DNA of 64,000 nucleotides from Salinispira sp. (GCA_965602015.1 OZ271918.1:2816001-2880000); one strand, 5' to 3'. Numbered from the stretch's first letter, positions 2,707-56,222 are shown. Program-made: numbers and translations. The notes: a model not told the origin generated them from the sequence alone.

Positions 2707-2713
2707 GACATTC

Positions 2714-36473: not shown

Positions 36474-39400
36474 ATGGCGTATCTCACTCCCCGTTTTATA
36501 ATAAATAACCATGTTGAAGGCAGGAAAAACGGTGAAATGCGGGTCATTTCCCTCTTCCTGGACATCTCGGGTTTCACTGCGATGACCGACTCCCTTATTT
36601 CACGGGGCAAGTCGGGAACTGAAACTCTTTCCCAGATAATCAATTCGGTATTTAAACCCCTTCTATCGGTGGTGTACGCCGCAGGAGGGTTCGTCACCAC
36701 CTTCGCCGGGGATGCGTTCACCGCGGTTTTTCCCCTGGAAGGCACAGCTGTTCTGTCCGGTCAAAACAATCCGGACGCAAAACAGGTGCTGGCCGCCGCT
36801 GCGGCAATGCTCAGGCAGTTTCACGACAAGCCCCTTCACCGGACGCCTTGGGGAGAATTCCTTCTCAAGGCAAAGGTTGGGATAGGATGCGGATCTGTTC
36901 AGTGGGGTATTCTCCAGGATGATGATTCGGCAGGATATTACTTCCGGGGTCCAGGCATCGATTCGGCCGCGGAAGCCGAGCATCACTGCCAGCCCGGCGA
37001 CCTGGCCATTACAGCAGACCTCGAAGTCGATATATCGGAGGCCGGCTCTGAGCTGCCCCGCCAATTGGGTAATTACCTGGTGCTCAAACCGGATTTTTCC
37101 CGGGCAGCCTCCGCTGAGGGCGGGCTCTCCAACGATGCCCGTGCTGCCCTGGAGATCGGATTCCCTCAGGAGACCGCATCGCTTTTTATGCCGCTGCGCT
37201 TTCTCCCGGGAGGCAGCGGAGGGGAATTTCGGGAAATCGTAAGCGTGTTTATTTCTTTCGACGACCGTTCGATAGACCTGGATACCCTGTTTTCTTCGAT
37301 TACCCGCAATGTCCAGCGCAGCGGCGGGTATTTTAACCTCATCGACTTCGGCGACAAGGGCGGTGTAGCCCTGGTGCTTTTCGGCGCTCCGGTCAGCCTT
37401 GAATTCCCGGTACAACAGGCCCTGGATTTTACCTGGAATCTGCGAACCGAGGTGCCGGAGCTCCGGATCGGCATCTCCCGGGGTCCCTGCTATGCTGGCT
37501 ATGTCGGATCTGAATTGCGGAGCACGTATACCGCACTGGGAGGAGTAGTTAACCTCTCTGCCCGCTTGGCCATGTCAGCCGAAGGACCAGAGATCCTGGT
37601 GCAGGAGTCGCTCATCCGGGAAGTGTCCGAGGGTTACGGGTTTGAAGCGCTCAAGCCGCTCACACTGAAAGGTTTTGCCGAACCCCAGCCGCTGGCCAGG
37701 TTTGTGAAGCGCGAGCACGTTGCGTCGGGTTCCCGGGAGACCGGTGTGGGAAGAAGGACGGAAAACGAGCTTCTCAGCGATGCAGTTCAAAGGCTGGCTC
37801 AGGGCTACGGATTCGGCACAATTATTGTCAGCGGCGAGGCCGGCATCGGGAAGAGTCAACTGCTGTCCGATGTTATGTCGGGACTCGATGAGGCTGACCG
37901 ACCTCATACAATTTTTCTGCGCTATGACGATCTCAACCGGGGATTTTTGCGCCCTGTTGCGGACTACATCGGAGGAGTGCTGGAAGAGTACCAGATTGAC
38001 GATGCCGGCCGGAGTCCTGAGCAGATGCAAAAGGCATTCGAAAAGCTTCGTCTGGATTTACAAGCCGGGGACGGAGTCCCGGATTTTCTCATTAATGAGA
38101 TGAATCGCGCCCTCCCTCCGCTGATGTCCATGAAGGACGAATGGTATCCCTCTGAACCTTCGGGAGCAATGTCGGATTATTCACAGCTCGATTCCCAGGC
38201 CCAAAGCGACCGGGTTTTGGAGGCGCTGATCGCGGTCTTCTCCCTCATGGCCATTGGCAGTCCGCGGCTGATCGTCGTGGAAAACGCCCAGGACATGGAC
38301 GAGAGTTCGATAGAGCTGTTCAACCGATTACTGTCCAGGGCGAAGGAACTGCCGATATCGCTGCTTTTTCTCACCCGAAACGAGGATTTTTTTGCCCGCA
38401 TGACGGTTCCCAAATCCCAGTTCATCAGGCTTCAGGCCTTCACCCGGGATGAAATCGCCGAACTGGTCAAGAAGCGCTTCAAACTCAGCGGCAGCGGAGA
38501 TCTCATCGATTTTCTGGCGACCAGAACCGACGGAGTACCCCTCTACCTCCAGGAGTTACTGCGCTATCTCAGAGAGAAGGGACTGCTCTACACCGAGGCC
38601 GAGACTGTCCGCTTAAGAAGCGTCGATGCATCGGTACTGCCCTCCTCCCTAGAGGCCCTCATTCTGAGCCAAATTGATCGGCTTCCCCAAAAGACGAAGG
38701 CGGTGCTTTCCGCCGCTGCGGTTCTCGGACAACGGATTGAGCACCCGGTTCTGACCGAGATGATAGCAATCCTCAATGCTTCCGGCGACAAAAGCCTTCC
38801 GGCGGGGCAACAGGAGAACAAAGATATACTGGATGCCCTGGCCAGCGCGTCTATACTCAATGCCATTGACGACGGGGTCAGCGAGTTTACCAAAAGTCTG
38901 CTGCGGGATTCGCTGTACAAACTCCAGTTCGACCGGCGGCTTCAGGAGTTGCACGGAGCTGCTGCGGACAGCCTCCTGAGCTGTTATCCCGAAGACGCTG
39001 ACAGATCGGCACAAAAGGCTTACCACCTGGAACGATCCGATCGACCCGACGAGGCCAGGAAATTCTATCGGTTGGCAGCTGATGCCGCCTTGTATAATTA
39101 TCAGAACAGTCAGGCCATGCGCTACCTGGAATGTATTCTCGAGCTGTCGAATGACGACCGGGAAAAGGCGGAGGTCTACCTGGATATGGCTAAGATTCTC
39201 GAAGTCACCGGCGACTGGGATCAGGCCCGGAGGCGACTGGAACTTGGGGTCGGGCTGGCAACCATTTCCGGCGAAGAGGGCATGTATCAACAGTTTTTCT
39301 CCATGCTCGGCCAGATCAGTTTCCGAAGGGGAAACACCGGTCAGGCGAAGTCCTATTTCGAAAAGGCCCTTCGCCGGGGCGAATATGACCAGGTGACCGA

Positions 39401-40469
39401 GGCCATGGTGGAAGTCCGACTCGGTCTGGCGCGTTCCCTCATGCGGGAAGCCCGCAACGCAGAAGCGCTCTCCCGGCTTTTCGAATCCCGGGATCTCGCC
39501 AGGGAAAAGGGATACCGGGCCAAGGAGGCCCAAATCCTCTATCACCTCGGGCAGATTTACCGAAGCAGCGGCGAAAGCGAGCGGGCAGTCGAGGCCCTCG
39601 AGGAATCCCACCGGATGTTCGTCGAACTCAACCTCATCCGCGAAATAGCGAATCCTTTATACGATCTCGGGCAAATATATATGAACAGCGGCCGGCTGGG
39701 AGAATCTCGCGAGACATTTTCAAAGATTCTGGAAACCTACAGCCAGATCGGTTATAAAAGCGGACTGGCAGCCGCCCTCATTAATCTAGGCGCCATTGAA
39801 GACCAGGTGGGTAACTTCCAGGCGGCCAGTGACCATTACCGCCGATCCCGGAACATCGCCCAGGAAATCGAGGAAGCCCCGGCTCTGGGCTATGCCCTCT
39901 TCTGCCTGGGTTCAAGCGCGTACAAGGCGGGGGAGTATACCCAGGCAATCTCCTATCTGAATGATGCGTTCAAAATATTCAGGGATATCGACCTGCGGAC
40001 CTATTTCAGTTACCCACTTTCATACCTGGTCGCCACCAATGTGCGGATGGGCGAGGTTGATCAAGCTCTGGATGAGGCCCAGGAACTGCTAAAAATAATT
40101 CATGAGCTCGGTGAAGACGGTGAACACGGAAGGATTTTCCTATCCCTCGGGGAACTTTTTGAGCGCAAGCTTCCCCTAAGCGATAAAAACAAGCAGTCGG
40201 TAAAGCACATCGCCCGTCTGGCGGGAATGAAATTCGTCAGCGCCCAGGCATTGTATCGCAAGGCCATTGAGGAATCCCGCAATCCTAAGTACATAAACAC
40301 CCTCATTCCCGCCCTCTACAGCTACGGGCGGGTACTTATGGCATCCGCCGACCATGCGAAACGGGAAAGCGGTAGGACATATGTGCAGAGGGCGGTACGG
40401 GAGTGCAGAAGCGCCGGATGGGAGAGCTATCTGGGCAGAATCCTCAAGCAATTTCCGGAGATTGAATGA
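36474..40469 (+). CDS. Tandem class III adenylate cyclase domains + STAND ATPase + TPR (soluble-adenylyl-cyclase-like)
   Basis: FLDISGFT and AGDA (domain 1); DKG and YT.LG..VNLSARL (domain 2); Walker A GEAGIGKS; G.PL; long TPR C-terminus. Confidence 0.9.
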   Translation: MAYLTPRFIINNHVEGRKNGEMRVISLFLDISGFTAMTDSLISRGKSGTETLSQIINSVFKPLLSVVYAAGGFVTTFAGDAFTAVFPLEGTAVLSGQNNPDAKQVLAAAAAMLRQFHDKPLHRTPWGEFLLKAKVGIGCGSVQWGILQDDDSAGYYFRGPGIDSAAEAEHHCQPGDLAITADLEVDISEAGSELPRQLGNYLVLKPDFSRAASAEGGLSNDARAALEIGFPQETASLFMPLRFLPGGSGGEFREIVSVFISFDDRSIDLDTLFSSITRNVQRSGGYFNLIDFGDKGGVALVLFGAPVSLEFPVQQALDFTWNLRTEVPELRIGISRGPCYAGYVGSELRSTYTALGGVVNLSARLAMSAEGPEILVQESLIREVSEGYGFEALKPLTLKGFAEPQPLARFVKREHVASGSRETGVGRRTENELLSDAVQRLAQGYGFGTIIVSGEAGIGKSQLLSDVMSGLDEADRPHTIFLRYDDLNRGFLRPVADYIGGVLEEYQIDDAGRSPEQMQKAFEKLRLDLQAGDGVPDFLINEMNRALPPLMSMKDEWYPSEPSGAMSDYSQLDSQAQSDRVLEALIAVFSLMAIGSPRLIVVENAQDMDESSIELFNRLLSRAKELPISLLFLTRNEDFFARMTVPKSQFIRLQAFTRDEIAELVKKRFKLSGSGDLIDFLATRTDGVPLYLQELLRYLREKGLLYTEAETVRLRSVDASVLPSSLEALILSQIDRLPQKTKAVLSAAAVLGQRIEHPVLTEMIAILNASGDKSLPAGQQENKDILDALASASILNAIDDGVSEFTKSLLRDSLYKLQFDRRLQELHGAAADSLLSCYPEDADRSAQKAYHLERSDRPDEARKFYRLAADAALYNYQNSQAMRYLECILELSNDDREKAEVYLDMAKILEVTGDWDQARRRLELGVGLATISGEEGMYQQFFSMLGQISFRRGNTGQAKSYFEKALRRGEYDQVTEAMVEVRLGLARSLMREARNAEALSRLFESRDLAREKGYRAKEAQILYHLGQIYRSSGESERAVEALEESHRMFVELNLIREIANPLYDLGQIYMNSGRLGESRETFSKILETYSQIGYKSGLAAALINLGAIEDQVGNFQAASDHYRRSRNIAQEIEEAPALGYALFCLGSSAYKAGEYTQAISYLNDAFKIFRDIDLRTYFSYPLSYLVATNVRMGEVDQALDEAQELLKIIHELGEDGEHGRIFLSLGELFERKLPLSDKNKQSVKHIARLAGMKFVSAQALYRKAIEESRNPKYINTLIPALYSYGRVLMASADHAKRESGRTYVQRAVRECRSAGWESYLGRILKQFPEIE

Positions 40470-40855: not shown

Positions 40856-41206
40856 ATGAAGTACATGTTCCTGCTCTACGACAAGCCGGAAATCGACCCC
40901 AAACTCGAGGAAGAGGAAATGCCTCTGTGGTTCGAATATACAAAGAAACTGCAGGACGCCGGGGTGCTCATCGGAGGGGAAGCCCTTGAAGGAATCAGCA
41001 CTGCAACGACGATCCGGGGTAAGGCCGCCAAGGGCTACGAAATGTTCGACGGTCCCTTCGCTGAGACCAAGGAGGTCCTCTCGGGATATTACATCATCGA
41101 TGTTGACAATCTGGACGAAGCGGCGAAGTGGGCGTCACAGGTTCCCCACGTGGCTCACGGAGGCACGGTGGAAATTCGCCCGGTGTTCGAAATGCCCGAC
41201 GAGTAA
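40856..41206 (+). CDS. YciI/DGPF-family protein
   Basis: MKYMFL, DGPFAETKE..SGYY, VEIRP; AGGAG RBS. Confidence 0.92.
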   Translation: MKYMFLLYDKPEIDPKLEEEEMPLWFEYTKKLQDAGVLIGGEALEGISTATTIRGKAAKGYEMFDGPFAETKEVLSGYYIIDVDNLDEAAKWASQVPHVAHGGTVEIRPVFEMPDE

Positions 41207-42439
41207 ATGGGCGGCGGCATTGCGGATTTTGCCAGAGAATCCTACTCACGCCTCTTTTCTTCCCTGTATTCCCGGTTCCGGGACATGGAGTTGGTTGAAG
41301 ATGGGATTCAGGATGCCATAGAAAAGCTTCTTGGCCGGCGGGGGAATCCTCCACGGGATACCCTCGCCTGGCTCTACACTGCGGCGAAAAACCGCATCCT
41401 CGACACCCTTAAAAGCAAGGCGGCACAGTTGGTGGCATACGCCGAGGAAATACACGGCGGGAGTGAAAGCGGAACTGATCCCTTCCAGGTTGATGAACAG
41501 CTTCGTCTCATGTGCCTCTGCTGTCATCCGGCTCTGGGTGAGCGGGTACAGATACTACTCACCCTGAAGCTGGTGGCCGGCCTCACATCCGGGGAGATTG
41601 CCGCCGCCCTGGTGATGAAAAAAAAGAGCGTCGAACAGGCACTTACCAGGGCAAAGGAAAAAATAAGGATAGCCGGCATACCATTCCGGACTCCCGAGGA
41701 CGGCGATCTGACCGATCGTCTGTCGGCCATTCGGAAGACGGTGTATCTCATGTTTAATGAGGGGTACCACAGCAACTCGGGGCAGGGGACGCAACGGCCC
41801 GACCTATGCAATGAAGCCATCCGCCTCGCCCGGCTGCTTGTGACCCTGTCGGGAGCCGATTCCCATCCTTCGCTATCTCTTCTGGCATTACTGCTATACC
41901 AGAACTCCCGGAGAAGAGCCCGCTTCAGCGACGATGGAGAGCCAATTCTCTTAAAAGATCAGGACAGGAACCTGTGGGACAGGGACCTGATTCGGGAAGC
42001 ACATGAACTGTTTGAAGCCCTGCTTCCTGCCACCCCCAATAAGCCGAACGAGTATTTCTTCCAGGCGGCCATAGCCAGGGAGTACGCCAGAGCTCCGGGG
42101 TATGAGGAGAGCAATTGGCCGCAAATCTGCCGGCTCTACGCCGATTACTACTACGCATACCCAAACCCCGTCGTGCTGCTTTCCTGGATTGGCGCGGAGT
42201 CCCAGCGCAGCACTCCCCGCATCGCCCTGGAACTCATGAAAAAGTTCGATCTACATACCCACTTGAAGGATTACCGCTGGTTTTACTCAGTCCGGGGCGA
42301 GCTCCGAGCCAAAACCGGCGATGCGGCCGGCGCATCAGCCGATTTATCAAGGGCGCTCTCACTCGCGGTAAATCCCGGGGAGCGGCGGCTATTGGAACGG
42401 CGCCTGGGGGAAATCGACGAGACTCTTGCTAAACGCTAA
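41207..42439 (+). CDS. ECF sigma factor with C-terminal TPR-like extension (ECF42-like, DUF6596)
   Basis: AWL...AKNR..D, CCHPAL, YLMFNEGY, LC.EAIRLAR, QDR.LW; directly follows the YciI gene. Confidence 0.9.
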   Translation: MGGGIADFARESYSRLFSSLYSRFRDMELVEDGIQDAIEKLLGRRGNPPRDTLAWLYTAAKNRILDTLKSKAAQLVAYAEEIHGGSESGTDPFQVDEQLRLMCLCCHPALGERVQILLTLKLVAGLTSGEIAAALVMKKKSVEQALTRAKEKIRIAGIPFRTPEDGDLTDRLSAIRKTVYLMFNEGYHSNSGQGTQRPDLCNEAIRLARLLVTLSGADSHPSLSLLALLLYQNSRRRARFSDDGEPILLKDQDRNLWDRDLIREAHELFEALLPATPNKPNEYFFQAAIAREYARAPGYEESNWPQICRLYADYYYAYPNPVVLLSWIGAESQRSTPRIALELMKKFDLHTHLKDYRWFYSVRGELRAKTGDAAGASADLSRALSLAVNPGERRLLERRLGEIDETLAKR

Positions 42440-42471: not shown

Positions 42472-43368
42472 TCACTCCCCGTGGACCCGCACGAGAATAT
42501 TGCCCTTTTTCCTGCCGCTTGCCACGTAGGCATGGGCCTGGGCAACGCCTTCGAGGGTGATTTCCCGGTCGATGATTGCAGTTACGTTTCCTTCTTTCGC
42601 CATTTCAAGAAGCTCTTCCAGTTCAGTGTTTATCTCTTTTGTGGGCCGGCGCACGCTGCCGATCTGTCCACCGGGATTGATGAGCTGTTTAGCCTGTTTC
42701 CTTGATAGTTTGCCCACCGCATCGATGAGGATGTCTACCCGTTGTTTTTTCCACTCGTCTTCCCGATAATCCAGCAGCCTGTCCATACCAAGACCCCGAA
42801 CCGCCGCAATGCTCGAGCTGCTGCACACACCGGTGACCCGGGCTCCCCTATGTTGGGCCAGTTGAGCGACGTAGCTCCCAACCGAGCCGGAGCAGCCATA
42901 TACCATAAGGCTCTTCCCTTTTATGCCGGAAAGCCGGCCCAGAATCTGCATTGCGGTCATGCCGCCCACCGCAAGGGGAGCCGCCTTTTCGAGGGCAAGG
43001 GCTTTGTCTACCTTCGCAAGAACCCCGCTTCTGCTCCTGGCGGGTACGCAGAGGTATTCGGCGTTTGCCCCGTATCGCAAACCCGTCGCGGTGCCGGCCA
43101 CCCGGTCTCCCGGAGAAAAATCCCCTACCCCGTCCCCGACTGCTTCGATTGTCCCTGAAAACTCCACTCCCGGAATATCCATGGCCTTGAATCCGAACAA
43201 AGCGCCGAGCACTGCGGTCAGTGCCCGGGGCATATTGTGCATAATTACGTCACCCCGGGTGACCGTGGCGTACGCCATCTTAACCAGCAGCTCTCCTTCG
43301 GACGGTTCGGACCTGTGGAAGTCCCGCAGCCTCAAAGCTCCGTTCCGGGTTCCGTCAATTGCCTTCAT
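42472..43368 (-). CDS. Zinc-independent MDR oxidoreductase (quinone oxidoreductase-like)
   Basis: PG.EFSG, GANAEY, G.SGSVGS, G.KKG. Confidence 0.88.
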   Translation of the reverse strand: MKAIDGTRNGALRLRDFHRSEPSEGELLVKMAYATVTRGDVIMHNMPRALTAVLGALFGFKAMDIPGVEFSGTIEAVGDGVGDFSPGDRVAGTATGLRYGANAEYLCVPARSRSGVLAKVDKALALEKAAPLAVGGMTAMQILGRLSGIKGKSLMVYGCSGSVGSYVAQLAQHRGARVTGVCSSSSIAAVRGLGMDRLLDYREDEWKKQRVDILIDAVGKLSRKQAKQLINPGGQIGSVRRPTKEINTELEELLEMAKEGNVTAIIDREITLEGVAQAHAYVASGRKKGNILVRVHGE

Positions 43369-43462: not shown

Positions 43463-44140
43463 ATGGCGAAAACCCGCAAAGGCAGAGCCCGGGCAGGTCT
43501 GAGTCGGGAACTGGTTGTGGCGGCGGCGGTCGAGTATGCCGACCGCTTGGGGATAGATGCCCTATCGATGAGAAAGCTCGCAGGTGATTTGGGGGTGGAG
43601 GCGATGAGCCTGTACAACCACGTGAAAAACAAGGAAGCCCTCACCAAGGCAATGCTCGATGTGGTTACCGGAAAGTTTTCCCTGCCGGAGGAACCACTGA
43701 CATGGAGGGAATTTTTATTTGAAAGGGGCGAGTCGATGTACCAGGGCCTGGTGGAGCACCCCTGGTCTTCAATGACGCTTATGTCCACCTTTTACGACGG
43801 GCCGTTATTTTTGCAGTTTATGGACCGGAGTTTCGGCTTTTTGGAAGATGCGGGCTTCAGCCTCGACAGAGCGGACTGGATACTCAATGCGGCGGACAGT
43901 TTCACTTACGGCTTTGTACTGCAGAAAATCAATTTCCCCATAGCCGACGAGAACATGGGTGCGGTCGCGGAAGCATCCCTGGACCTGGTGCCTCCGGACA
44001 GCCTTCCGCATCTGAATCGCCTCACCGCCATGGTTGCCCGGGGAGAATACGACGGCTTGTTCGACTACCACTTCGGGCTGTCGGCATTGGTGCGGGGTTT
44101 TGACGAACCCGGGCGGTCAGCCGGCACTACTGGGCGGTGA
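43463..44140 (+). CDS. TetR family regulator (TetR_C type)
   Basis: LSMRKLA..LGV.AMSLY.HV.NK helix-turn-helix. Confidence 0.93.
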   Translation: MAKTRKGRARAGLSRELVVAAAVEYADRLGIDALSMRKLAGDLGVEAMSLYNHVKNKEALTKAMLDVVTGKFSLPEEPLTWREFLFERGESMYQGLVEHPWSSMTLMSTFYDGPLFLQFMDRSFGFLEDAGFSLDRADWILNAADSFTYGFVLQKINFPIADENMGAVAEASLDLVPPDSLPHLNRLTAMVARGEYDGLFDYHFGLSALVRGFDEPGRSAGTTGR

Positions 44141-44897
44141 AACCCCCGTCCACCGTCAGGATGTGCCCCGTGAGAAACACCGGTGCCTCGCTGAGAAGCC
44201 AGAGGGCTACAGATGCGACCTCTTCGGGTTCGGCAATCCGGCCGATGGGGTGGCCTTCACCGTAGGCTTTTTCTATCTCAGGACGGCCTCCGGTGCTCCG
44301 CTTAAAAATGTCGGTCCGCACGGAGGCCGGGGCGATGGCGTTTACCGATACTCCCCGGGACGAATATTCCAGGGCGGCAGTGCGGGTGAGTCCGTTGACC
44401 GCGTGGCGGCTCGCATTGTAGGCGGATCGGCCCGGCCGGGCCACCGATCCGCATATGCTCGACATATTCACAATTCTCCCGCCGCCGTTTCGCAGCATCA
44501 TGGCCAATTCCCTCTGCATGAGCAGAAAGGTCCCCCGGAGATTAATGTCGAGAATGCGGTCGAATTCCTCTATGCTCGTTTCCAGAATCTCGGCCTTTTC
44601 CCCGTCGATACCCGCATTGTTAAATGCCCCGTCCAGGACGCCGTGCTGATCCCCGATGTGGCGGAACAAGCGGTCGAGGTCTTCGACCTTTGAGCTGTCC
44701 GACGGGTGAAACTCAGCGGTGTATCCGAAGTCCCTCAATTCATCCTGGAACGCATAACCGAGCTCCCGCCGCCGCCCGGTAAATATCAGCCGGGCGCCTT
44801 TGGCTGCAATGAGCCGGCAGGCTTCCCTGCCGATACCCGAAGTTCCGCCGGTAACCAGAATGACCTTGCCAGTAAGAACGGCTGCAGACCTGCTCAC
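44127..44897 (-). CDS. SDR family oxidoreductase with atypical YxxxR catalytic motif
   Basis: TGGTSGIG, NNAG, SS, YNASR, P.GR...PEE, DGG; GTG start overlaps the AfsA-like stop (GTGA). Confidence 0.88.
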   Translation of the reverse strand: MSRSAAVLTGKVILVTGGTSGIGREACRLIAAKGARLIFTGRRRELGYAFQDELRDFGYTAEFHPSDSSKVEDLDRLFRHIGDQHGVLDGAFNNAGIDGEKAEILETSIEEFDRILDINLRGTFLLMQRELAMMLRNGGGRIVNMSSICGSVARPGRSAYNASRHAVNGLTRTAALEYSSRGVSVNAIAPASVRTDIFKRSTGGRPEIEKAYGEGHPIGRIAEPEEVASVALWLLSEAPVFLTGHILTVDGGFTAQ

Positions 44898-46099
44898 AAG
44901 ACGGCCTCTTCGGGAACCTTGCACGAGCGTTTCAAAAAGAGCTCGAGTGCCTCGCTCTCAAACTCGTCGCCGAATACCAGGCGCTGACCCCGGCTTCCCG
45001 CCGATATAAGCGTGGCGCTCCCGTTTGCTGTGCCGAGCCCTGAGATGAGCAGAATAAACTCGCATGCCCCGCTTTCCGGCAGCTCGCCGCCGGATCCGAG
45101 CTTTATTTCGGCTCCCGACAGGTTGATCAGATTCACTTCCCGTTCGATCCAGCGGCTCTGGGGATCCGTTCTGATAAGCAGACTGTAATCCCGGTGATCC
45201 GCGGGAATAAAGGGCAGCGAGCGCAGTTCATCGCGCTTCATACGCCGTATCCGCCGGAATACCCCGGTTCCGATATTGCTGCCCGCGCAGGTTACCACTC
45301 CGCTCTTTTGTCCGTTCTGATGGATTGATATATCCAGGCTGACGAAGGACCACACGCCCCGGTGCAGCTTTTTCCGGGTCAGTTCTGCTCTCAGTACCAC
45401 CGGAGCATAGAGCTCGAGAAAACCGCTGAACCGGGCTTCCAACACGTCGAGTATCATGTGGGAGCCCTCCAGGGGGACCGCCCCGTACTGGTGACCGCAG
45501 GCGATGATCATCTGGCGGCATGCTTCAAGAAGCATAATTCCCGGCACGTGCTCGTTGGGATGCTCAAAAAAGAAGGGGTGGCTTGTCTCCACAACCATGT
45601 TCGCCAGATACACTTCTTCCCGATATCCGGCATCGCCCTTCTCGACTATGGCGGACACCTCAGCCTGCAGCGAGTTGTCCGTGTAATACTCCCGTTTGTC
45701 GGCGGTTTTGATTATCCGGTTCAAAAGATCATCGTCGGGAATTTTTTTCAGATAGCGGGTTCCCGCGGCATCGCATTCACCGCCGTAATGGTCGTCCAGA
45801 TGACCCGCGAGGTCTTCATTGAGCGAAATCCGGACCGCCTCATACTGTTCCCGGCTGAGTTTCATTACCCCCAGGATTTCCCGGTGGGCATACACCGGCC
45901 CATCGCCCAGGAGTCCACCCGATTCGACCAGCCGGTACACCGAATACAGGGCATCTTTTTCTTCAGTGTTGAGCCGGGACGCCAGGGTATCCATTTCATC
46001 AGGAGAAATGCTCTTCGGGAGCATTCTCCTGAGATTCGCCAATAATACATTGCTTTCGCGGTTTTTATGGACCAACCGCCGGTCAACAAGCCTATCCAT
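44894..46099 (-). CDS. AfsA-related hotdog-domain protein (A-factor/butenolide biosynthesis family) with a degenerate PilZ-like C-terminal domain
   Basis: N-terminal RRLVHK....NVL and [23 protein letters not shown] match the AfsA repeat signature. The C-terminal RxxxR...NLINLSGA beta domain as PilZ-like is inference. Confidence 0.8.
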
Positions 46100-48140
46100 C
46101 GCCTTCCTCCCCGAGCGAGAACTGATCGCAGATGCCTTCGAGATCCCTGGAAACCGCGGTGTTCGATTCCGAAGTTTTTCTCAGTTCCACAAGCATGGCC
46201 GAGATATCTTCGTTACTCCGGTGCTGCTCCAGGGTTGCGCCGCGGATGTAGTCCGACATGTGGACCAGATCGGCCATGGCATTCTCAATGTGCCGGCTCT
46301 TGCCGTTGACGTTATCCATCAGCTCTTTAATGCTGTTCGTGGCGTCAACCACCGATGAAACCGAAGCGAGCACCTCGTCGGTTCCCGCCCGCTGCTCGGT
46401 CATGGCCGACGACACCAGATCGATGAGCCCGGTGGTCTCTTCAATACCCTTGAGAATGCTTCTGAAAGACCGACCGGCTTCTTCGGTCTGTTCGACGCCG
46501 CTTTCAACGCGGTCTGACATCTGTTGAATCTGCTCGTATATTTGACGGGACTGGGACGAACTGCTTTCGGCGAGTTTGCGTATTTCCGACGCCACGACGG
46601 CGAAGCCCCGGCCGGCCTCGCCGGCATGGGCGGCCTCTATGGCGGCGTTCATCGCCAGGAGGTTTGTCTGTTCGGATACGTCGGCGATTATTTTGACGAA
46701 CTCCGCAACCCGGACCGCGCTTTCCCTGATGACCCGGATCGATTCGATGCTTTTCCCCAGCTGCTCTTCACCCTCCCGGGCAGTATTCCCCAGCTTCTGG
46801 CCCAGCTCATTTGCCAGGTCGGTGTTTTTGGCGACCGAGGCGATGTTGCCGGCCATCTCGCTCATGGCGCCGGCGGTCTGCTCAATAAACGACGACTGGT
46901 TCTCCACATCAATCCTGGCCCGGTCCATATCCTGCTGCATCTGGGCTATGAGGTCCCGGACGAGGGTTACCGAGCCGGATTGCTCCTCTGCGCTTGACGA
47001 TATCTGCCGCACCGAACTGACGACCTCGTGCATCGCTGCCGAAGCCTGTTCCGCGGCGCTGTCCATGCTGACCGAAGAAAGGGATATGCGCTGGCTTCCT
47101 CCGGCCACGCTGACGAGAATGCTTTCAAGGGTCCCCATGAAGCGGTTTATCAGGTCTGACAGCTCACCGACCTCGTCGTAGGCGGTAATAAACAGCCGTT
47201 CGGTGAGACGGTCCTTTCCGTCGAGAATTCCCCGGATTTTCCGCTGCTGAAGCCGGAGCTGAAGGGTTATTTCCCTGGCGTACACGGCAATGACGATTAA
47301 CACGATGGCGGCAATGGCGATAAAGCCGAGATACACGCCAAAGCGAACCGCCCTGCGGCGGGCTTCCCCGGCTGCAATAATCCGCTCAAATGACGGCGCC
47401 GGATCCAGCCGGGAAAAAAGGCCGTCGAAGTTAGCCCGGGCTGCCTGCATATTGCCCCCTGAGGCCAAAATCTCCGCGCTTACCGTGGATTCGATTTCCC
47501 AGGCGAAATAGAGCTTGGGAATGAAATAACTCACGGCGTAGAGGGCCAGGAGGCTGCCGATGAGCACGGTTTTCGCCCGGAGCCCGCCGGACTTCCTCAC
47601 CTCGCCGATGCTGGTTATTTTCATCACGCTTCGGACCGGGGTCAGCACCTGATTGTTGAGGGATATCTGAACGAAGGCATACACGACGGAACTCGAAAGG
47701 GTAAAAACCAGCTGGAACCACAGGCGGGGACTGTCGGGATTGGAAAACAGTCCCCGGTTCCATGCGAAGAGCAGGGTTCCCAGGAAAAAGCTGATAAAGT
47801 TCAGCAGGAAAATAAATGCCGGGAGGGCGAACATGCGCTTTTTCGCCAACTTCATTTCCTCAGCCGGCGCTCCTCCGCCGGACAGTAGTCGGCGGTAGGT
47901 TTTAGTAATGGGCAGGGTGTAGGCGTATATCGCTCCGGAAAAAAGCAGGAGGATGGGTATAACATTCACCAGCATAAATGTGGAGAAGTAGCTCCACAGT
48001 CCGCTCAACGGATCGATGCCGATAATTGCCTGTTCGATTACGTGGTCGGTAATCGTCAGGATGCTCAGGGGCAGCAGGAACACCAGTACGGTATTTCTTA
48101 CTATCCTGATGGAGACATTGCTTTTTTTCATCTGGGTCAT
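46092..48140 (-). CDS. Methyl-accepting chemotaxis protein, about 6 TM segments
   Basis: Multiple hydrophobic helices, HAMP (DEVGEL), [27 protein letters not shown]; 8-bp overlap with the AfsA-like gene. Confidence 0.93.
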
Positions 48141-48157
48141 AGACTCTCCGGCCCGGC

Positions 48158-49216
48158 CTACTGAATGTAGGCCAGGGCTATTTCGAGGCTGTCAGGAAAG
48201 TTGGAGAAGCCCAAAAGCCTTCCCTCGGCATCGGCGGTCCAGGAATTCACGGTGTGCACCCGGTAGATTTTCCCCGTGCTAAACACCCGCCACTCTTCGT
48301 AGAGAATGACGTCGGCCCGGTTTCCTTCACTGACTATGAAGCGCTCGACAAAAACCGGCTCCGCGGTGCCCCCCAGGTTGCCCACAAAACTGAGAATTTC
48401 ATTTTTACCCTCGTAGGAACCCGCAAAGGGATAACTCTGAGGATCTCCCTTGAAATACACTGCGGCATCATCGGACAAGAGTTCGAACACAGCGGGAATA
48501 TCGCCGGCGTAAAACAGATCGTAGAGGGTGTCGACTTTTTCAGCGACGCCGTCCACATTAACGCCGATTTCATAGGAATCGTCGGGGTTGCGGATGTCGG
48601 TAAAAAGCCGTCCGTCGGCATTGCCGCCGAATGCCCGGGTCCATGCCTGGGTGTCGTAATACATCCTCGCTTCGCTTATATAGCCGCTGCGGCCGAAGCG
48701 GAAAAGGAATACGGTCTCAAGATCGATTTCGGCCCCGGTAGATACCACCTCCGCGCGTATTTGAACGTGGCTGCTCACGTAATCGTTCTCGGCGAGCTGA
48801 TACTGAACGTCGACCTCCCGGATATCAAGTTCCCTCCACAACTGTCTGAAGTAGCGGTCAACCTCGCGGCCTCCGCTGTATTCCCCCGAAAGGGGCACCC
48901 GCCCCCCGGCGAGGCCGGTGATGGTAAGTTCGGAGCCCCGGACGAAAAACCGGGATGTGAGAAAGTGCTCCCGGGAATAGAGCTCGAAAAACAGCCTCAG
49001 GTAATGCTTACGGGCCTGGTAAATCCAATCCGGCGAAAGGGTCCTGCTGGCGCTTTCCGTCCTGACGCTCATGTCCATGACGCTTCCCGGAGGAGGCGGA
49101 AGCTCGGAAATCTCCATCTGGTGGTCCGGGTCCATAAACGGCTCGGTACACGAGCTGATAAAAACGGCTGCAATGACAATACATGCTATACGAAAAAATG
49201 TGCTGGCGGTGTTCAC
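48158..49216 (-). CDS. Lipoprotein with two SnoaL/NTF2-like domains
   Basis: GTG start with CAGGAG RBS; lipobox FISS-C; two repeats of P..G.Y.G...V..(F/Y), ending YYDT and FPDS. Confidence 0.75.
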
Positions 49217-49300
49217 GGTATTCTCCTGTATTTTTACTTGCAACTGCCGCGGGTCGGCAGTTTCCTCAATGAACCCTAACTCCGTTGTCTTGTGCCGTAT

Positions 49301-49332
49301 ATAGCAATGTATTGCTAGCAAGATCTTGCTAT
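49301..49332. promoter_or_regulatory. Tandem overlapping palindromes TAGCAA-N4-TTGCTA (candidate operator)
   Basis: TAGCAATGTATTGCTA (49302-49317) and perfect TAGCAAGATCTTGCTA (49316-49331) in the divergent promoter region. Confidence 0.6.
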
Positions 49333-49417
49333 GCCAAAATCAGGGAAAATTTGAATAGGCGTGAAAAAATAGCTATATTCTGACCAGACTATATTTGAGT
49401 TTTTTGAAGAGAATGCT

Positions 49418-51022
49418 ATGAAACCACTGTTGGAAAGAGTTTCGGATATTTACTCGTCGGAGCATCCCCAAATTCGCATAAAGGCCAGGACCATGCTTGT
49501 CATCGCACTGGCGTCCTCTGCCCTGCTTATTATCAGCCTGGCAATTCGCCTCATAACGGGTAACTTCGCGGTAGCCCTGCTGGGGGCATCGGCGCTGGCG
49601 GCTATCTGGACCGGAATGGGTTTTCTGTTCAGGGGCAGGGCGGTTGCTGCCAGCAATATTCTTCTTATTGCCGCGGGCACGGGGGCTTTGGCAATTTCCT
49701 ATGAAGGGGTGAGCGGCGATCCGGCGGCGCTGTACTCCGTGGCCTTATACGCAATGATTCCCCTGTTTTCCATCGTGTTGTTCGGCATGAAACGCTATCA
49801 GTATTTTATCATCCTCGGCGAAACCGTCGCGGTGTACGTCCTTGCGCTCATCGTGAAGATCCTCCCCATGGGGCTGGAAACCGCGCAAGTGCTGGGGCCC
49901 GTAATCGGTTCTTCCCTGGTGTTCCTTACCCTCTTCGCATTCCTTTTGGTCGCCAGTCGAAATTCCGAGCGCCTCATCGCAGATGTGGCCCGGCAGGCCG
50001 AAGAACTGCAGCTGCAGATCAACAGGCAAAACGCCTTGCTTGCAAATGTGGAAAAGAGTCTTGATACCGGCAGCGCCCTCCGGGAAAAAGCCGGCTTATC
50101 CCAGGAAATGACTGCAAAAATCAGCGCCAGCCTTGAAGAAATGGGAAAACACACCCACAGCCTTCGGGAACAGGCGGAACTCACCACCAGGTCCCAGCAT
50201 GCGGTAACTCAGGCAAATGACTCGGTGAAAAACCAGATGAGTGAACAGAGCGCGGCGGTAACCGAATCTTCCGCATCAATAGAACAGATGTCGTCGAACA
50301 TCGCATCCATATCCAACTCCGCCCGAGAGAAAAAACAGTTCGTCGACCAGCTCAATAAGCGGCTGTCCGACGGTGAACGTTCAATGGCCCAGACCCGTCA
50401 ACTCATCGAACAGATGAATACATCCATGAAAAGCATGCTGGACATTATCACAGTAATCGAGGATGTTTCGGACCGCACCAACCTGCTGGCCATGAACGCA
50501 TCCATCGAGTCGGCCCATGCGGGGGAACAAGGTCGGGGATTCGCTGTGGTGGCTCAGGAGATCCGCAAGCTCAGCGAGGAGACCCGGGTGAACTCGGCGA
50601 ATATCCGCTCTTCCATTGAGGAAAACCGGGAACTCATGGGCCAAACCCAGGAGGCCATCCTGGCCAACAGCGAGAACTTCAAAGCGATAACCAGTGAGGT
50701 CGTACAGGTTAGCCAGGCATTTCAGGAGATCCTCTCATCGACCCAGGAATTGCAAACCGGAACCATGGAGATCGTACAATCCACCGTTCTGCTCAAAGAC
50801 GGACACGATCAGGTCGATCGTGCCCTGGAAACCATGGAGACCACCATCGCTTCCACCGGCGAGAGCATACAGAAAATCGTAGAATCGGCAAAACTGATCG
50901 GAGAACGCATCGGTGACATCACCCGCACCGCCGGCACCATTCGAGGCGCTGCAGAAGATGTGTCCCGCATCGGCTCGGAAAACCTCGAAGCCGTCGAGAG
51001 CCTCAGAGAAGCCCTCCAGTAG
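49418..51022 (+). CDS. Methyl-accepting chemotaxis protein, about 6 TM segments, no periplasmic domain
   Basis: N-terminal ~180 aa hydrophobic; [33 protein letters not shown]. Confidence 0.92.
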
Positions 51023-51301: not shown

Positions 51302-51332
51302 CCGCCGGGACACATGTTCCGGCGGTTTTTTT
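51302..51332 (+). terminator. Rho-independent terminator
   Basis: CCGCCGG/CCGGCGG stem followed by T7. Confidence 0.7.
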
Positions 51333-53049
51333 ATCCGCCCCCGAGGCGGGCTGCCAGGCTCCGCAGTTCGTCCGCCGAGGATGCGGCGAGAATTTGCTGC
51401 CTGGTTTCCCCCAGCTCCCGTCGGGACAGGCCGCGGATCCGCTCCTTGATTTCCGGAACCGAAACCGGAGCCATGCTGAACTCATCCAGCCCAAGCCCGA
51501 GGAGCAGCGGGAGCGCCAGGGGATCTCCCGCCATTTCCCCGCACATGCCGACCCAACGCTCGCGGGCGTGGGCGGCCTGTAAAACCATGTCGATAAGCCG
51601 GATGACCGCCGGTTGAAAGTAGTCGGCCAGGGGGGCAACCCGTTCATTTGTCCGGTCGGCAGCGAGGGTATACTGGGTCAGATCATTGGTGCCGATGCTG
51701 AAAAAATCCACATGGGGGGCGAAAAGATCCGCGGCCAGGGCGGCGGAGGGAATCTCAATCATTATCCCCAGCTGGGGACGGGCGTTGTGTTCAATTCCCG
51801 CATTGCCAAGTTCGGCGAGCAAATCGCCCACTATCTTTCTGAGATAGATGAATTCCTCGAAGTGGGCGATCATGGGAAACATTATCCGCAGGTCGCATCC
51901 GGCGCCGGCTCGAAGAACTGCTCGGAGCTGGGGAAACAGGAGTTTTTCCGGGTGGGTCAGGGCCAGCCGGACGGCCCGTTCGCCCAGGAAGGGGTTCTGC
52001 TCCGCCGGCATTTCAATACTCGGCAGCTGCTTATCTCCCCCCACATCGAGTGTCCGTACGACGATAGGACGCGTGCCCATTTCGGCAAAAATCTCCCGGT
52101 ACTGGCGGTATTGCTCTTCCTCGCCCGGCAGGGACGGACGCTCGAGAAACAGAAACTCCGTGCGAAACAGCCCCACCCCGTCGGCACCGAACTCATTTGC
52201 CTGCTTGGCGTCATTAAGGTTTCCGATATTCGCAGCCACTTCTATGGTGCTTCCGTCGGCGGTGGTAGCAGGCTTCCTGGCAAGGGCCTTTAGTTTTTGC
52301 CGGTGCTCGCCAAACTCCTTGGCCATTCGCCGGTATTCCTCCTCAACCTGCTCGTTGGGATAAGTAATGACCGCGCCGCTGCTGCCGTCGACGGCGATGC
52401 GGCTTCCGTTCTCAGCGTGAATTTCGCCGATGCCGACCACCGCGGGAATGCCCAGCCCCCGGGAGAGAATGGCCGTATGGCTTGTGGCGCTTCCCAGCCT
52501 GGTGCAGATAGCGAGGGAAGTTCCCGGTGCGAGATGGGCGGTGTCAGTTGGGGTGAGGTCGTCGGCGAGGATTACCGAGGGCTCGGAAAGGTCGGCCAGG
52601 CTGGCATCCTGCACATCCAGAAGAAGGGCCAGCAGGCGGCGGGCCAGGTCCTGAATGTCGGCAATCCGGCCTTGAAAATACTCATCCTCGATTTCGCCAA
52701 ACTCGGCGCAGAGCTGATCGGACACAACTTCTACGGCGTGGGCCGCCCGGTAAGCTTCATCGGCGACCAAACGGCGGATTTCTTCTCCGTAGGACGGATC
52801 TTCGAGAAACTCGAGCTGGATTGCGAATACTTCCACCTCTTCATAGCGCTCCCGCTCCTCCATCAGTTCCACCAGACCGGAAATGTCGCTGGAGGCCCGG
52901 GTCATGGCCGCCTCCAGCCTGTCCTGTTCGGCCTGGCGGTCCCCGGAGAGATCGCGCAGTATCAGTGACTTGAGGTCCTGCTTTACATAGTTAAAAACCG
53001 GACCGACGGCAATGCCCGGACTTGCGGCAATTCCTTTGTATTCGGTCAT
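51331..53049 (-). CDS. ptsI: PTS enzyme I (PEP-protein phosphotransferase)
   Basis: SHTAI phospho-His, GLFRTEF, RTLD.GGDK, SIGTNDL.QY, CGE. Confidence 0.96.
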   Translation of the reverse strand: MTEYKGIAASPGIAVGPVFNYVKQDLKSLILRDLSGDRQAEQDRLEAAMTRASSDISGLVELMEERERYEEVEVFAIQLEFLEDPSYGEEIRRLVADEAYRAAHAVEVVSDQLCAEFGEIEDEYFQGRIADIQDLARRLLALLLDVQDASLADLSEPSVILADDLTPTDTAHLAPGTSLAICTRLGSATSHTAILSRGLGIPAVVGIGEIHAENGSRIAVDGSSGAVITYPNEQVEEEYRRMAKEFGEHRQKLKALARKPATTADGSTIEVAANIGNLNDAKQANEFGADGVGLFRTEFLFLERPSLPGEEEQYRQYREIFAEMGTRPIVVRTLDVGGDKQLPSIEMPAEQNPFLGERAVRLALTHPEKLLFPQLRAVLRAGAGCDLRIMFPMIAHFEEFIYLRKIVGDLLAELGNAGIEHNARPQLGIMIEIPSAALAADLFAPHVDFFSIGTNDLTQYTLAADRTNERVAPLADYFQPAVIRLIDMVLQAAHARERWVGMCGEMAGDPLALPLLLGLGLDEFSMAPVSVPEIKERIRGLSRRELGETRQQILAASSADELRSLAARLGGG

Positions 53050-53128
53050 CCTCGCTCCGCCCTCTATTATATAAATGTAATGTATAAAAGAATGTCTGTT
53101 TTACACGGCTGTCGTATGCGGATATCCG

Positions 53129-53398
53129 TTATTCCTCGCTACTGGCGAGAAACTCGCCAAGGGCGTCGGCAGCTTTTTGCTCGTCCGGACCGTCGAGGGT
53201 CAGTTCTACCTGATGGTCCTGGGCGCAGGCGATTTTCATCACCTTTACCAGACTCTTTGCGTCGACCTGTTCACCATCCCGGGTGAGGTTTCGAATCCTG
53301 ATGGTCGCATCGAAGGATTTTGCGAGTTTAACGAATTTGCCCGCCGGCCGGGCGTGAAGCCCGACGGCGAACAGCACGGTATGCGTGGCGGTGATCAT
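53129..53398 (-). CDS. ptsH: Phosphocarrier protein HPr
   Basis: GLHARPA, DAKS, GPDE. Confidence 0.95.
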   Translation of the reverse strand: MITATHTVLFAVGLHARPAGKFVKLAKSFDATIRIRNLTRDGEQVDAKSLVKVMKIACAQDHQVELTLDGPDEQKAADALGEFLASSEE

Positions 53399-54693
53399 GC
53401 GCCCTCCCGCTTGATGGTTTTCTCCTGAAGGGTTCTCAGATGATATATTGTGGTGGTCGTATCGATATCCACATCGGAGTAGGTTACCGGTTCGCCGGCC
53501 TTTACATCGTTTTTTATCACCGCATTGGGCGCGAGGCCCAGGGGCAACAGGTCCTGTTCTGCAGCGATCTTCGAACTCTCAATCATGCCGTACACCGTAA
53601 ACCCTCCGAGGGCGTCGATGACGTCACCCGCCTTGAGGTCTTTCTTGGCATAGGTGACGGTTTCGCACACCGGATGAATGTCCGTGGCGATGGTGGTTTC
53701 GTTGTTGAGCACGGCCCGGGCGATGGAGACCGGGGTTTCAAGACTGGTTAGATGATAAGGCCGGTAAAGAGCCCAGTAGGGCCCGGGACCCATGCTGAGG
53801 TATTTCAGGTCACGGGCGAGCTTCGGATGGTCGGTTGTAAATATGACAAATACTCCCGGCGCAATTCCCCGGCAGTATTCCACCACCTGGGTTTTTGAAA
53901 GAACTCCGCCGTCTTTTTTCGGTATAAAGACGTCCTGCAGGGTTTTTGGGCCCGCCTCGGGACCGTGCATCCCCCGGACGTCGGGAACGAAACCGATTGC
54001 GTTGCCCAGACTGGTCATTTCAACCATGGTTTTGGTTCCATCGACAAAACTGGAGAGCATTTTCGGGTTCATTTGCTGGGCCTTCGCCTTCTCGGCGAGG
54101 GTTTCGGGGTTGCCGCTCCGGTCCAGAGGATTATTTTTTCCCTTTCCCGCGGCGACGACTTCAAAGCCAAGACCCACGGCAAAATCGTAGAGTTCCATGG
54201 TGGTTCCCGGTTCGTCGCCGGCGGTGAGGGTGTAGACCACGCCGGCGGCCCTGGCCATTTTCCGGAGGATGTACCCCACGGTGGCGTCGGTTTCCACATT
54301 CATCTGCAATACATGCTTTCGGTTGAGAATGGCCTCGTAGGCGATTTGCGCGCCGATTTCCGGTATGCCGGTGGCTTCGACAACGATATCAAGATCGGGG
54401 ATGCGGCTGATAATTCCCGCATCGGCGGTTCCCACATGTTTGCCGTCCCGAACCGCCTGACTTGCTGTGGCCAGATCATCTGTGAGAATATAATCGCTTT
54501 TTTCAAGACGCATGGATTTGAGTACGGCTTCCGGGCGCCCGGGCACCACATCGGCCACGGCAAATGCCCGCATACCGGTCATCAGCTCCATTTGGCAGGC
54601 AAGTCCTTCGCCCATCTGTCCGGCCCCGACTAACCCGACCTTTATGGTTTTTCCCTGTGCGGCGTAATCCCGCAAGGATTTTATCAGTTCCAT
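53395..54693 (-). CDS. NAD(P)-dependent oxidoreductase with C-terminal SAF domain (COG4091 homoserine-dehydrogenase-like)
   Basis: GAGQMG, NVE.D.TVG, GDEP, GKGKNN, SFVDGTK...EM, RPYHL, SAF tail. Confidence 0.85.
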   Translation of the reverse strand: MELIKSLRDYAAQGKTIKVGLVGAGQMGEGLACQMELMTGMRAFAVADVVPGRPEAVLKSMRLEKSDYILTDDLATASQAVRDGKHVGTADAGIISRIPDLDIVVEATGIPEIGAQIAYEAILNRKHVLQMNVETDATVGYILRKMARAAGVVYTLTAGDEPGTTMELYDFAVGLGFEVVAAGKGKNNPLDRSGNPETLAEKAKAQQMNPKMLSSFVDGTKTMVEMTSLGNAIGFVPDVRGMHGPEAGPKTLQDVFIPKKDGGVLSKTQVVEYCRGIAPGVFVIFTTDHPKLARDLKYLSMGPGPYWALYRPYHLTSLETPVSIARAVLNNETTIATDIHPVCETVTYAKKDLKAGDVIDALGGFTVYGMIESSKIAAEQDLLPLGLAPNAVIKNDVKAGEPVTYSDVDIDTTTTIYHLRTLQEKTIKREGA

Positions 54694-54694
54694 C

Positions 54695-55060
54695 TCACGC
54701 TCCTGTAATCTCGACCACTGAGCCCGGCCCAAGATCCGGCACCGGCTGCTGGGGGAGGTTGATGTCTCCCTGCATTTCCGCTTCCGCTAGTCCGTTGAAT
54801 TTCAATACAAGGTGGCCGAGGTTGGCCAGATTTTCATTGGCCACCGGACCCACTGCCAGTACCGGAAAGGCGGTTCCGTTGATGACAACCGAATCGCCGA
54901 CCACCACGGGAGATGCGGGCTTATCGGTGGTGGAATGGACAAAGGCGGTTTCCTGCAGCTCTTCGGGAGCATTAACGGCGAAAAAAACCAGAATGCCCTC
55001 GTCGACAAATTCCTGAGCGAGCTCGCCGACGGACTGTATCTCAGCGCGGTATTTCGTCAT
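54695..55060 (-). CDS. srlB: PTS glucitol/sorbitol-family EIIA
   Basis: APEEL....F.H, AVG.VA..NL..LGH.VL.F.G. Confidence 0.9.
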   Translation of the reverse strand: MTKYRAEIQSVGELAQEFVDEGILVFFAVNAPEELQETAFVHSTTDKPASPVVVGDSVVINGTAFPVLAVGPVANENLANLGHLVLKFNGLAEAEMQGDINLPQQPVPDLGPGSVVEITGA

Positions 55061-55123
55061 GACGTCTCCTCGACATCCCAATAAGGTATGAGGCAATGCT
55101 TTATTTCATCAAAGTTGTGCGAT

Positions 55124-55152
55124 AAACGGCCGGGACTACACCCCGGCCGTTT
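55124..55152. other. Intra-operon hairpin between the EIIB and EIIA genes
   Basis: AAACGGCCGGG/CCCGGCCGTTT 11-bp stem. Confidence 0.55.
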
Positions 55153-55164
55153 TTGACTTGTCGC

Positions 55165-55662: not shown

Positions 55663-55679
55663 TTCCTACTCCTGTTTCC

Positions 55680-56222
55680 TTAGGCGTACATTCCGATGCT
55701 GGCTGCCCATGCGAGCAACACGGCAATTGGACCGGTGATCATACGGCTGAAAAGCACCGCAGGCACGCCGATCTCGACGGTATATGGCTCAGCTTCTCCC
55801 AATGAGAGGCCTACGGGAATAAAGTCACAACCTACCTGGGGGTTGATGGCGAACAGTGCGGGCAGGGCGTTTTGGGGGGCGATGTTTCCCCGTCCGATTT
55901 CAACACCGATGAGGGTACCGATAATCTGGGCAATAACCGCTCCGGGCCCCAGCAGCGGGGAGAGAATCGGGAATCCGACGATTATCGAGAGCACCAACAG
56001 ACCGACGAAACTGTTCGCCAGACCGGTCAGACCTTCGGAAATCCAGTTACCAACTCCGGTGGCCAATACGATACCGATGATCAGGGAGATAAATGCCATG
56101 AACGGCAGGACGTTCTTCACGACCTGATCTACCGAATCACGACCGGCCTGATACAGCTTTGCAACGACGCCGCCAACCGCGCGGCCGATGACTTCAAGTA
56201 CTTTTGCTACGGGATTTGCCAT
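55680..56222 (-). CDS. srlE: Stand-alone glucitol-family EIIC2 (SrlE C-terminal half)
   Basis: [43 protein letters not shown]. Confidence 0.88.

Follow-up and report, generated by a model that had tools for sequence, protein, structure and literature searches.

A conserved chemoreceptor and AfsA-like synthase unit in Salinispira and other spirochaetes, a candidate module for chemotaxis to a self-made signal

The window analysed here, a 64,000 nt stretch of DNA from the free-living spirochaete Salinispira sp. (GCA_965602015.1 OZ271918.1:2816001-2880000) from a genome of 3.87 Mb in a single contig that we code G000, contains a tightly packed minus-strand unit in which a chemoreceptor gene adjoins a gene for an AfsA-like synthase. 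In the direction of transcription, the unit encodes a 351 residue double SnoaL/NTF2-fold lipoprotein (48158..49213; two SnoaL_2 stretches, E 2e-13); a 682 residue methyl-accepting chemotaxis protein (MCP) we call MCP1 (46092..48140; MCPsignal, E 3e-35); the 401 residue AfsA-like synthase (44894..46099; PF03756), whose C-terminal residues ~289-401 (44897..45235) match a PilZ fold in a structure model; and a 256 residue short-chain reductase, SDR (44127..44897, starting from GTG 44897; adh_short_C2, E 5e-60). The most likely start of the lipoprotein gene is GTG 49213, which is preceded by AGGAG, and its open reading frame extends upstream to TTG 49321 (48158-49321, minus strand). A 17 bp gap separates it from MCP1, MCP1 and the synthase gene overlap by 8 bp, and the synthase and SDR genes meet at TTGTGA, which, with GTG 44897 as the SDR start, makes a GTGA overlap. 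A previous sequence-only reading of this DNA had described the same four genes as one unit with these three junctions; its coordinates, gap and overlaps were all reproduced, and the AfsA, SnoaL and MCPsignal domains it had proposed were each confirmed by Pfam. A scan of the locus for promoters and terminators found numbers in line with chance expectation (6 vs 4.4 and 11 vs 8.9) and therefore says nothing on co-transcription. G000 contains a single PF03756 gene and 30 MCP genes above cut-off; with that many MCPs, one MCP neighbour means little, and the linkage was therefore examined across genomes.

The MCP-AfsA(-SDR) linkage, which the sequence-only reading had proposed to survey in other genomes, does recur in several spirochaete families, and linked loci span five of them (f1, f53, f98, f108, f112). 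Three layouts are found. The MCP lies directly upstream of the synthase on the same strand in G000, G002, G005, G713, G189, L015 and L021 (and in G801, where it is shortened), is divergent from it across an SDR in G627, and is convergent with it across four genes in G700. A tree of 36 full-length six-helix MCPs, leaving out duplicates, shortened pieces (G801, G028, L014) and the G393 sequence that the wider profile missed, groups the 10 synthase-linked MCPs and one from G126 on a single branch (support 96/99) with 0 of 25 other rows inside. The G126 genome carries two synthase genes, on contigs other than that of its MCP, and the P0175 MCP is counted as linked solely through a presumed shared 272,061-bp contig with synthase and SnoaL homologues. 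Three of the genomes (G713, G627, G700) came to light through the synthase alone, and their MCPs then fell inside the linked branch. The receptor clade is confined to synthase carriers. Four aligned linked MCPs are 28-52% identical to one another, and in a sample of 401 genomes of the class, 6 of the 10 that carry the synthase have a linked-clade MCP at the locus. A decayed module occurs in G028 (family f6; L012:7850-8650, C103), where an internally deleted MCP overlaps (TGATG) the first ~55 codons of a synthase gene whose remainder is gone. The MCP-synthase linkage is thus a kept partnership, which is not proof of ligand binding. A ~120 residue protein was also seen at three MCP-containing synthase loci (L021:5264-5617, L014:4278-4646, L182:6382-6744), one copy giving a weak SpoIIAA-like match.

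MCP1 comprises a six-helix membrane sensor (~residues 9-306), a HAMP-like linker and the MCP signalling domain. Its structure model (predicted local distance difference test, pLDDT, 85.6) contains six long helices, of which hydropathy detects 5 segments (6 in the second chemoreceptor of the window, MCP2, described below). A loop of ~55-60 residues lies between helices 5 and 6, and basic loops follow helices 2 and 4; we infer from the model that the chain crosses the membrane six times and exposes a small loop outside. The sequence-only reading had both MCPs as polytopic with little or no periplasmic domain, of which 'polytopic' and 'little' stand and 'none' must be given up for the loop of MCP1. 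No Pfam family scored above cut-off for the sensor domain in 15 members, and searches of solved folds with the MCP1 sensor returned nothing above background (best Foldseek E 0.9; best Z 7.2), a result that does not imply a new fold; a MASE10 match (score 0.80) is a weak atlas lead. The DExG-to-tip spacing of MCP1, 180 aa, is the same as in 9 of the 10 other measurable MCPs of G000. This genome has two CheA clusters, one with a CheW-CheR-like gene, CheX and a response regulator and the other composed of CheA/CheB/CheR/CheD, and the MCP1 class presumably works with the CheA-CheW-CheX-CheY flagellar system and not with the latter cluster. The six-helix sensor family is wider than the synthase: within the order 15 of 99 genomes have it, and within the phylum 16 of 401. 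G000 itself has a distant six-helix paralogue (genome positions 475356-477359) that has no synthase linkage and lies outside the linked clade.

The synthase matches PF03756 in one stretch, residues 160-271 of 401, with 88.5 bits against a cut-off of 24 (E 5e-25). Its structure model (pLDDT 86) has three parts: a single FabZ-type hotdog made of the N-terminal LVHK segment and residues ~160-277, a ~130 residue insertion without a fold match of its own, and the C-terminal PilZ fold. Residues 2-277 of the model superpose on FabZ-type 1u1z with Z 13.7 (root-mean-square deviation, rmsd, 2.6; 135 aligned) and on the FapR hotdog with Z 11.4; the sequence itself matched no solved structure at E 1. A profile search recovered 116 representatives of the family at E 1e-30 or better, and in an alignment of 93 full-length relatives (375-445 aa) E192, R195 and Q261 are invariant while H184 and Q196 are each present in 92. 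The spacing of E192/R195 equals that of E78/R81 and E240/R243 in ScbA, judged by motif spacing within the Pfam domain rather than direct alignment, and both ScbA pairs are reported as essential (PMC13454427). The enzyme likely works like AfsA, since this E-x-x-R motif is invariant, yet is no canonical ScbA, since it fails the cut-off of the ScbA/BarX equivalog. The AfsA signature named in the sequence-only reading is therefore borne out by Pfam, but in a protein with one hotdog and a PilZ-fold tail, unlike the two-domain ScbA. That reading had overlooked both features, and likewise that no phosphatase is linked and that the family has several other kinds of receptor partner.

The PilZ part resembles the PilZ domains of YcgR (5y6g: Z 9.6, rmsd 4.7, 109 aligned), MrkH (5ejl: Z 9.8, rmsd 2.5, 98 aligned) and PP4397, with Z 9.5-9.8 overall, and Pfam PilZ matches in synthase homologues reach E 3e-10. 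PilZ domains bind cyclic diguanylate (c-di-GMP) through RxxxR and D/NxSxxG motifs. In our alignment RxxxR occurs at its canonical site in 1 of 93 sequences, D/NxSxxG in 52 and both together in none, and the window synthase and its branch have lost both. The missing motifs speak against c-di-GMP control through this domain, which is probably a structural or docking surface and not a c-di-GMP switch.

In the order, 4 of 99 genomes contain the synthase family, three of them with an intact copy and one with a remnant; it was also found in 10 of 401 genomes of the class, in 5 of 20 of the order of G189 and in 54 of 401 of the phylum, where family f29 accounts for 37 of its 76 sampled genomes. Named homologues come from spirochaetes, P0005 and P0166 being recorded from Salinispira pacifica and Spirochaeta lutea. 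Family f29 is probably Leptospiraceae, as one of its proteins shares 55% identity with P0053, which carries that family name. Flanks were read for a chosen subset, including only 3 intact f29 loci. At 36 spirochaete loci (two genes split over two contigs count twice, many contigs are short, and the range was 5 kb) the neighbours were a kinase-type sensor at 14, counted by kinase-domain similarity, a haloacid dehalogenase-type (HAD) protein at 13, the partner SDR at 12, a six-helix MCP at 7, a LytB-like protein at 7, an exported PDC-type protein at 4 and SnoaL at 2. The sensors and phosphatases beside the other spirochaete synthases are Ser/Thr-kinase-PP2C hybrids, histidine kinases and HAD phosphatases, and synthase loci without a sensor were found in G361, G161, G236, G195 and G256. 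Eleven further loci, called proteobacterial by gene content and homologue names, carry a flavin oxidoreductase (7), a second SDR (7) and the partner SDR (6); the synthases there sit in biosynthetic sets, often without a receptor. On the synthase tree, which predates the discovery of G713, G627 and G700, rows group according to partner (proteobacterial, kinase-linked or MCP-linked), with 2 changes vs 13 when shuffled.

Several of these loci have features of their own. In f29 and its relatives (L093:532-8285, L095, L094, L022) the synthase gene is tightly packed with an SDR and/or HADs and a gene for a ~1,800-1,900 residue Ser/Thr kinase-AAA-GAF-PP2C protein; the L093 synthase has its LVHK and EHPNEH motifs replaced and E-x-x-R retained. 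A protein of ~300 residues that weakly matches LytB/IspH and may be a redox enzyme for tailoring directly adjoins the synthase at L008:1771-2691, L015:9272-10234, L186:8289-9197, L082, L086, L088, L090 and L092. On the proteobacterial side, a synthase-flavin oxidoreductase-SDR-SDR set at L029:5404-13631 adjoins a luxI/luxR pair and has a desaturase and an MMPL-type exporter, and at L040:4563-12412 and L044:2660-8287 genes for an asparagine-synthase-like protein, synthase, oxidoreductase and SDR are consecutive, resembling the styrolide set; L040 adds FabH-like and phosphopantetheinyl transferase genes, and Burkholderia ambifaria is the recorded source of the L044 protein. A tblastn search of plasmids with a proteobacterial relative gave no match.

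The SDR of the window is a dedicated orthologue by sequence: it is 56-59% identical to the synthase-adjoining SDRs of G002 and G005 and 33-54% to SDRs at other family loci, compared with at most 33% for its own-genome paralogues. YxxSR replaces YxxxK in 7 of 12 aligned partner SDRs, and is therefore a clade trait and not decay. The SnoaL lipoprotein is an accessory member, because its gene occurs in only 2 of 99 genomes of the order, in both directly upstream of the linked MCP, and was not found in the complete G002 genome; its inclusion in the module by the sequence-only reading thus stands for its place in the unit and not for a general role. A lipoprotein-like signal N-terminus ending in Cys is present in 9 of 12 aligned SnoaL homologues (2 are shortened, 1 lacks it), one homologue being named from a myxobacterial family, and the protein is a candidate for binding, carriage or turnover of a ligand outside the cell.

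We favour, at roughly even odds (about 0.5), a module that makes a diffusible butenolide-type product and senses it with its own co-encoded chemoreceptor; what the sequences show are its domains, its conserved residues of catalytic type, the operon-like packing of its genes and a receptor clade limited to synthase carriers. By analogy with AfsA, the gladiostatin PBS domain and acaterin, the hotdog would join a 3-oxoacyl chain on acyl carrier protein (3-oxoacyl-ACP) from fatty-acid synthesis with a triose phosphate, dihydroxyacetone phosphate (DHAP) or glyceraldehyde 3-phosphate, to give a 2-acyl butenolide phosphate. The synthase would probably act as a homodimer, because each chain has one hotdog. 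The dedicated SDR would then likely reduce the acyl ketone, and an unlinked phosphatase would strip the phosphate so that a lipophilic product could exit the cytoplasm, the weakest step of the scheme. Outside, the SnoaL lipoprotein, where present, may bind, carry or degrade the product, which would bind the co-encoded MCP at its six-helix membrane domain; the receptor would signal via CheA-CheW-CheX-CheY to the flagellar motors, and cells would gather at, or disperse from, their kin. Association of other synthase branches with other sensors fits a ligand-receptor relation, the exported PDC-type protein at 4 of 36 loci points to an outside ligand, and the HADs (13/36) and SDRs (12/36) of spirochaete loci, with the flavin oxidoreductases (7/11) and SDRs (6/11) of proteobacterial ones, form the tailoring set expected for a phosphorylated butenolide.

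This interpretation must be tempered by several observations that weigh against it. No synthase was found in 11 of the 15 genomes of the order that have the six-helix sensor, so the domain is not butenolide-specific; conversely, G361 and G161 have a synthase without an adjoining sensor, and the six-helix MCPs of both lie off the linked branch. Kin share gene order, and transfer of a whole cassette would also give a clade, so that the tree speaks for partnership only, and one origin of the MCP-linked synthases is weakly supported and not rejected (support 78/90, 80% of bootstraps). The synthase scores 60.7 bits against a cut-off of 200 for the ScbA/BarX equivalog NF041195, and by Pfam and the model it has one hotdog where ScbA has two. 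Neither a HAD nor a flavin oxidoreductase was found at the window locus, and a profile of 10 family HADs detected nothing in G000 at E 0.01, leaving the release of phosphate unexplained, a task that unrelated HADs could perform. A styrolide-negative Pseudomonas mutant showed no major change in swarming (PMC7154651).

The same lack of a linked phosphatase and of a family HAD in G000 would suit an internal metabolic reporter, in which the ligand made by synthase and SDR is retained in the cell or its membrane, perhaps with its phosphate, and informs the cell's own MCP of the supply of 3-oxoacyl-ACP and triose phosphate; the result would be metabolism-linked taxis and not cell-to-cell signalling. 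The sensor of MCP1 lies mostly within the membrane, and the commonest partner elsewhere (14/36 loci) is the kinase-AAA-GAF-PP2C protein, a type that is mostly soluble. Against it, the exported partners (the SnoaL lipoprotein here and, at 4 of 36 loci, the PDC-type protein) are in keeping with a ligand outside the cell, HADs do occur at 13 of 36 loci, and the known products of the AfsA family are released molecules according to the part of PMC7756379 available to us. We consider this reading unlikely. A second alternative separates product from receptor: the unit would make an acaterin-like metabolite for defence or surface activity, co-regulated with an MCP that senses some other cue, such as a precursor, a lipid or a competitor's lactone, marking when or where to produce. 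Related six-helix MCPs in genomes without a detected synthase, proteobacterial members in biosynthetic sets that are often receptor-free, and the sensor-less synthases of G361, G161, G236, G195 and G256 are consistent with it. The receptor clade was seen only in synthase carriers, however, and the linkage is kept through three arrangements, of which the convergent one cannot share a promoter; we regard co-regulation of this kind as rather improbable.

Two further explanations dispense with a butenolide. The hotdog could be a FapR-like acyl-thioester sensor (compare the FapR match at Z 11.4) in an adaptor whose PilZ fold docks on the MCP or on CheR/CheA and relays fatty-acid status with no small molecule made, as might also be suggested by retention of the PilZ fold family-wide without its nucleotide motifs and by the synthase-MCP gene overlap, which suggests translational coupling; an enzyme accounts better for the invariant E-x-x-R, for the reductases and phosphatases dedicated to the family and for the exchange of partners between sensors of unrelated architecture, and we think an adaptor very unlikely. 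Least credible of all is a FabZ-like dehydratase or thioesterase that remodels acyl chains with the SDR while the MCP senses membrane state, for although FabZ gives the best fold matches and P0002, a 62% homologue, is named 3-hydroxyacyl-ACP dehydratase in one source, such matches are expected when ScbA itself, which per the available part of PMC13454427 had no family crystal structure, is modelled on FabA/FabZ, and Pfam calls AfsA and not FabA (a FabA match is absent from the synthase and below cut-off in one homologue) while the Arg of E-x-x-R is invariant.

Other genes near the unit were set aside. MCP2 (49418..51022, plus strand, 534 aa; MCPsignal, E 1e-31) is divergent from the lipoprotein gene, and the sequence-only reading had counted it as part of the module; it has no close orthologue in the 99 genomes of the order (best others 19-30% identity) and is absent from the G002 and G005 loci, which rules it out as a member and makes it a bystander. 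The TetR regulator gene (43463..44140, plus strand) is convergent to the SDR gene and overlaps its end by 14 bp. Its product reached 17.8 bits against a cut-off of 150 for the ScbR model, and tblastn against the loci collected at that time matched only those of G000 itself; an ArpA/ScbR-type receptor is ruled out by this score and lack of recurrence, and the gene probably belongs with the zinc-type reductase gene (42472-43368) divergent from it. Beside the G002/G005 module lies a pair encoding a 183 residue protein and a membrane-anchored LuxR-type regulator (L010:6668-8010; also G000 genome 2560387-2561676). Because 36 of the 99 genomes of the order carry this 183 residue partner, which has no Pfam match, and its G000 copy lies at a distance of 300 kb, the pair was rejected as a second receptor. 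Elsewhere in the window are a mevalonate pathway cluster (1429-8368, plus strand) with an 850 residue gene product that fuses an FMN-dependent domain, probably a type-2 isopentenyl diphosphate isomerase, to HMG-CoA reductase; a 1356 residue class III cyclase-AAA-TPR protein (36399-40469, plus); a gene with a YCII domain and, after it, one for an ECF sigma factor extended by DUF6596 (40856-42439, plus); and a sorbitol/glucitol phosphotransferase system cluster (51331-57336, minus) that includes an enzyme I of its own, a gene resembling HPr and a SAF/DRL oxidoreductase.

The hormone-type chemistry of AfsA is known mainly from transcriptional control in actinomycetes. In a literature search that placed most subscription journals outside its scope, we found, among the papers listed, no AfsA-PilZ fusion, no pairing of AfsA with a chemoreceptor and no spirochaete system; terms joining AfsA, MCP and butyrolactone returned only unlinked genes on a Pantoea integrative and conjugative element. 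A survey of PF03756 covering 12 phyla left the products of distant homologues open, and its main text gave no match for chemotaxis or Leptospira (PMC8209734). The MCP-synthase unit is thus real, conserved and apparently an undescribed variant. Linkage of a synthase and a steering receptor across spirochaete families suggests that a small molecule of the lactone type is produced by the cells and steers their swimming, and the three-gene unit names both a candidate signal and a candidate receptor in a phylum without such a signal in the literature searched. If this is true, it supplies a ligand for an orphan family of membrane sensors and a dedicated autoinducer directly coupled to flagellar steering. 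The 37 of 76 sampled f29 genomes also offer a lead on the synthase family in a second spirochaete family. A broader proposal, to which we would give somewhat less than an even chance, is that butenolide-type signalling is widespread and undescribed in spirochaetes, with a hotdog-PilZ synthase serving swappable receptors (the six-helix chemoreceptor, kinase-PP2C hybrids, and PDC-proteins/histidine kinases), own-hormone quorum taxis at the locus described here, and a new class of membrane-embedded lipid-signal sensor.

Comparison with known systems places the unit between butenolide synthesis and self-signal taxis. In Streptomyces the receptor gene adjoins the synthase gene (PMC13500789), and AfsA-ArpA, ScbA-ScbR and SabA/SabP/SabD likewise combine an AfsA-family E-x-x-R enzyme, a reductase and an adjoining receptor (PMC13500789, PMC7756379, as far as the available parts of both describe them). 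The spirochaete synthase differs in that a lone hotdog with an insertion and a C-terminal PilZ fold takes the place of two repeats. The candidate receptor beside it belongs to the chemoreceptors instead of the TetR repressors, with a predicted output of motility rather than transcription; in contrast to SabA/SabP/SabD, no phosphatase is linked at the window locus. In Pseudomonas, AfsA-like enzymes are required for production of the butenolides acaterin (AcaA-AcaB-AcaC) and styrolide (StoB-E) (PMC7154651), which likewise pair a Gram-negative AfsA-like synthase with an SDR and draw on a 3-oxo thioester of fatty-acid metabolism. Their synthase-flavin oxidoreductase-SDR(-SDR) order is present in 7 of 11 proteobacterial loci, compared by gene order and not by AcaA/StoB sequences, and partly in spirochaete G700; the window locus, by contrast, has no flavin oxidoreductase, and the Pseudomonas compounds have no identified receptor in PMC7154651. 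The AfsA-like PBS domain of the gladiostatin/gladiofungin polyketide synthase condenses 3-ketothioesters with DHAP in vitro (PMC7756379, PMC7756420); it too lies outside Streptomyces, but within an antibiotic assembly line and with no receptor in the available parts of these accounts. Chemotaxis to self-made signals is itself established for autoinducer-2 (AI-2) in Escherichia coli (LsrB/Tsr) and Helicobacter pylori (TlpB) and for the S-signal of Vibrio parahaemolyticus, where cells likewise steer on a released molecule, with aggregation or dispersal as the outcome, in the available parts of the respective reports (PMC8632791, PMC5056481, PMC4488943). In E. coli the general receptor Tsr acts with LsrB (PMC8632791), whereas the spirochaete unit sets a dedicated receptor clade beside a secondary-metabolite-type synthase, with a different chemistry.

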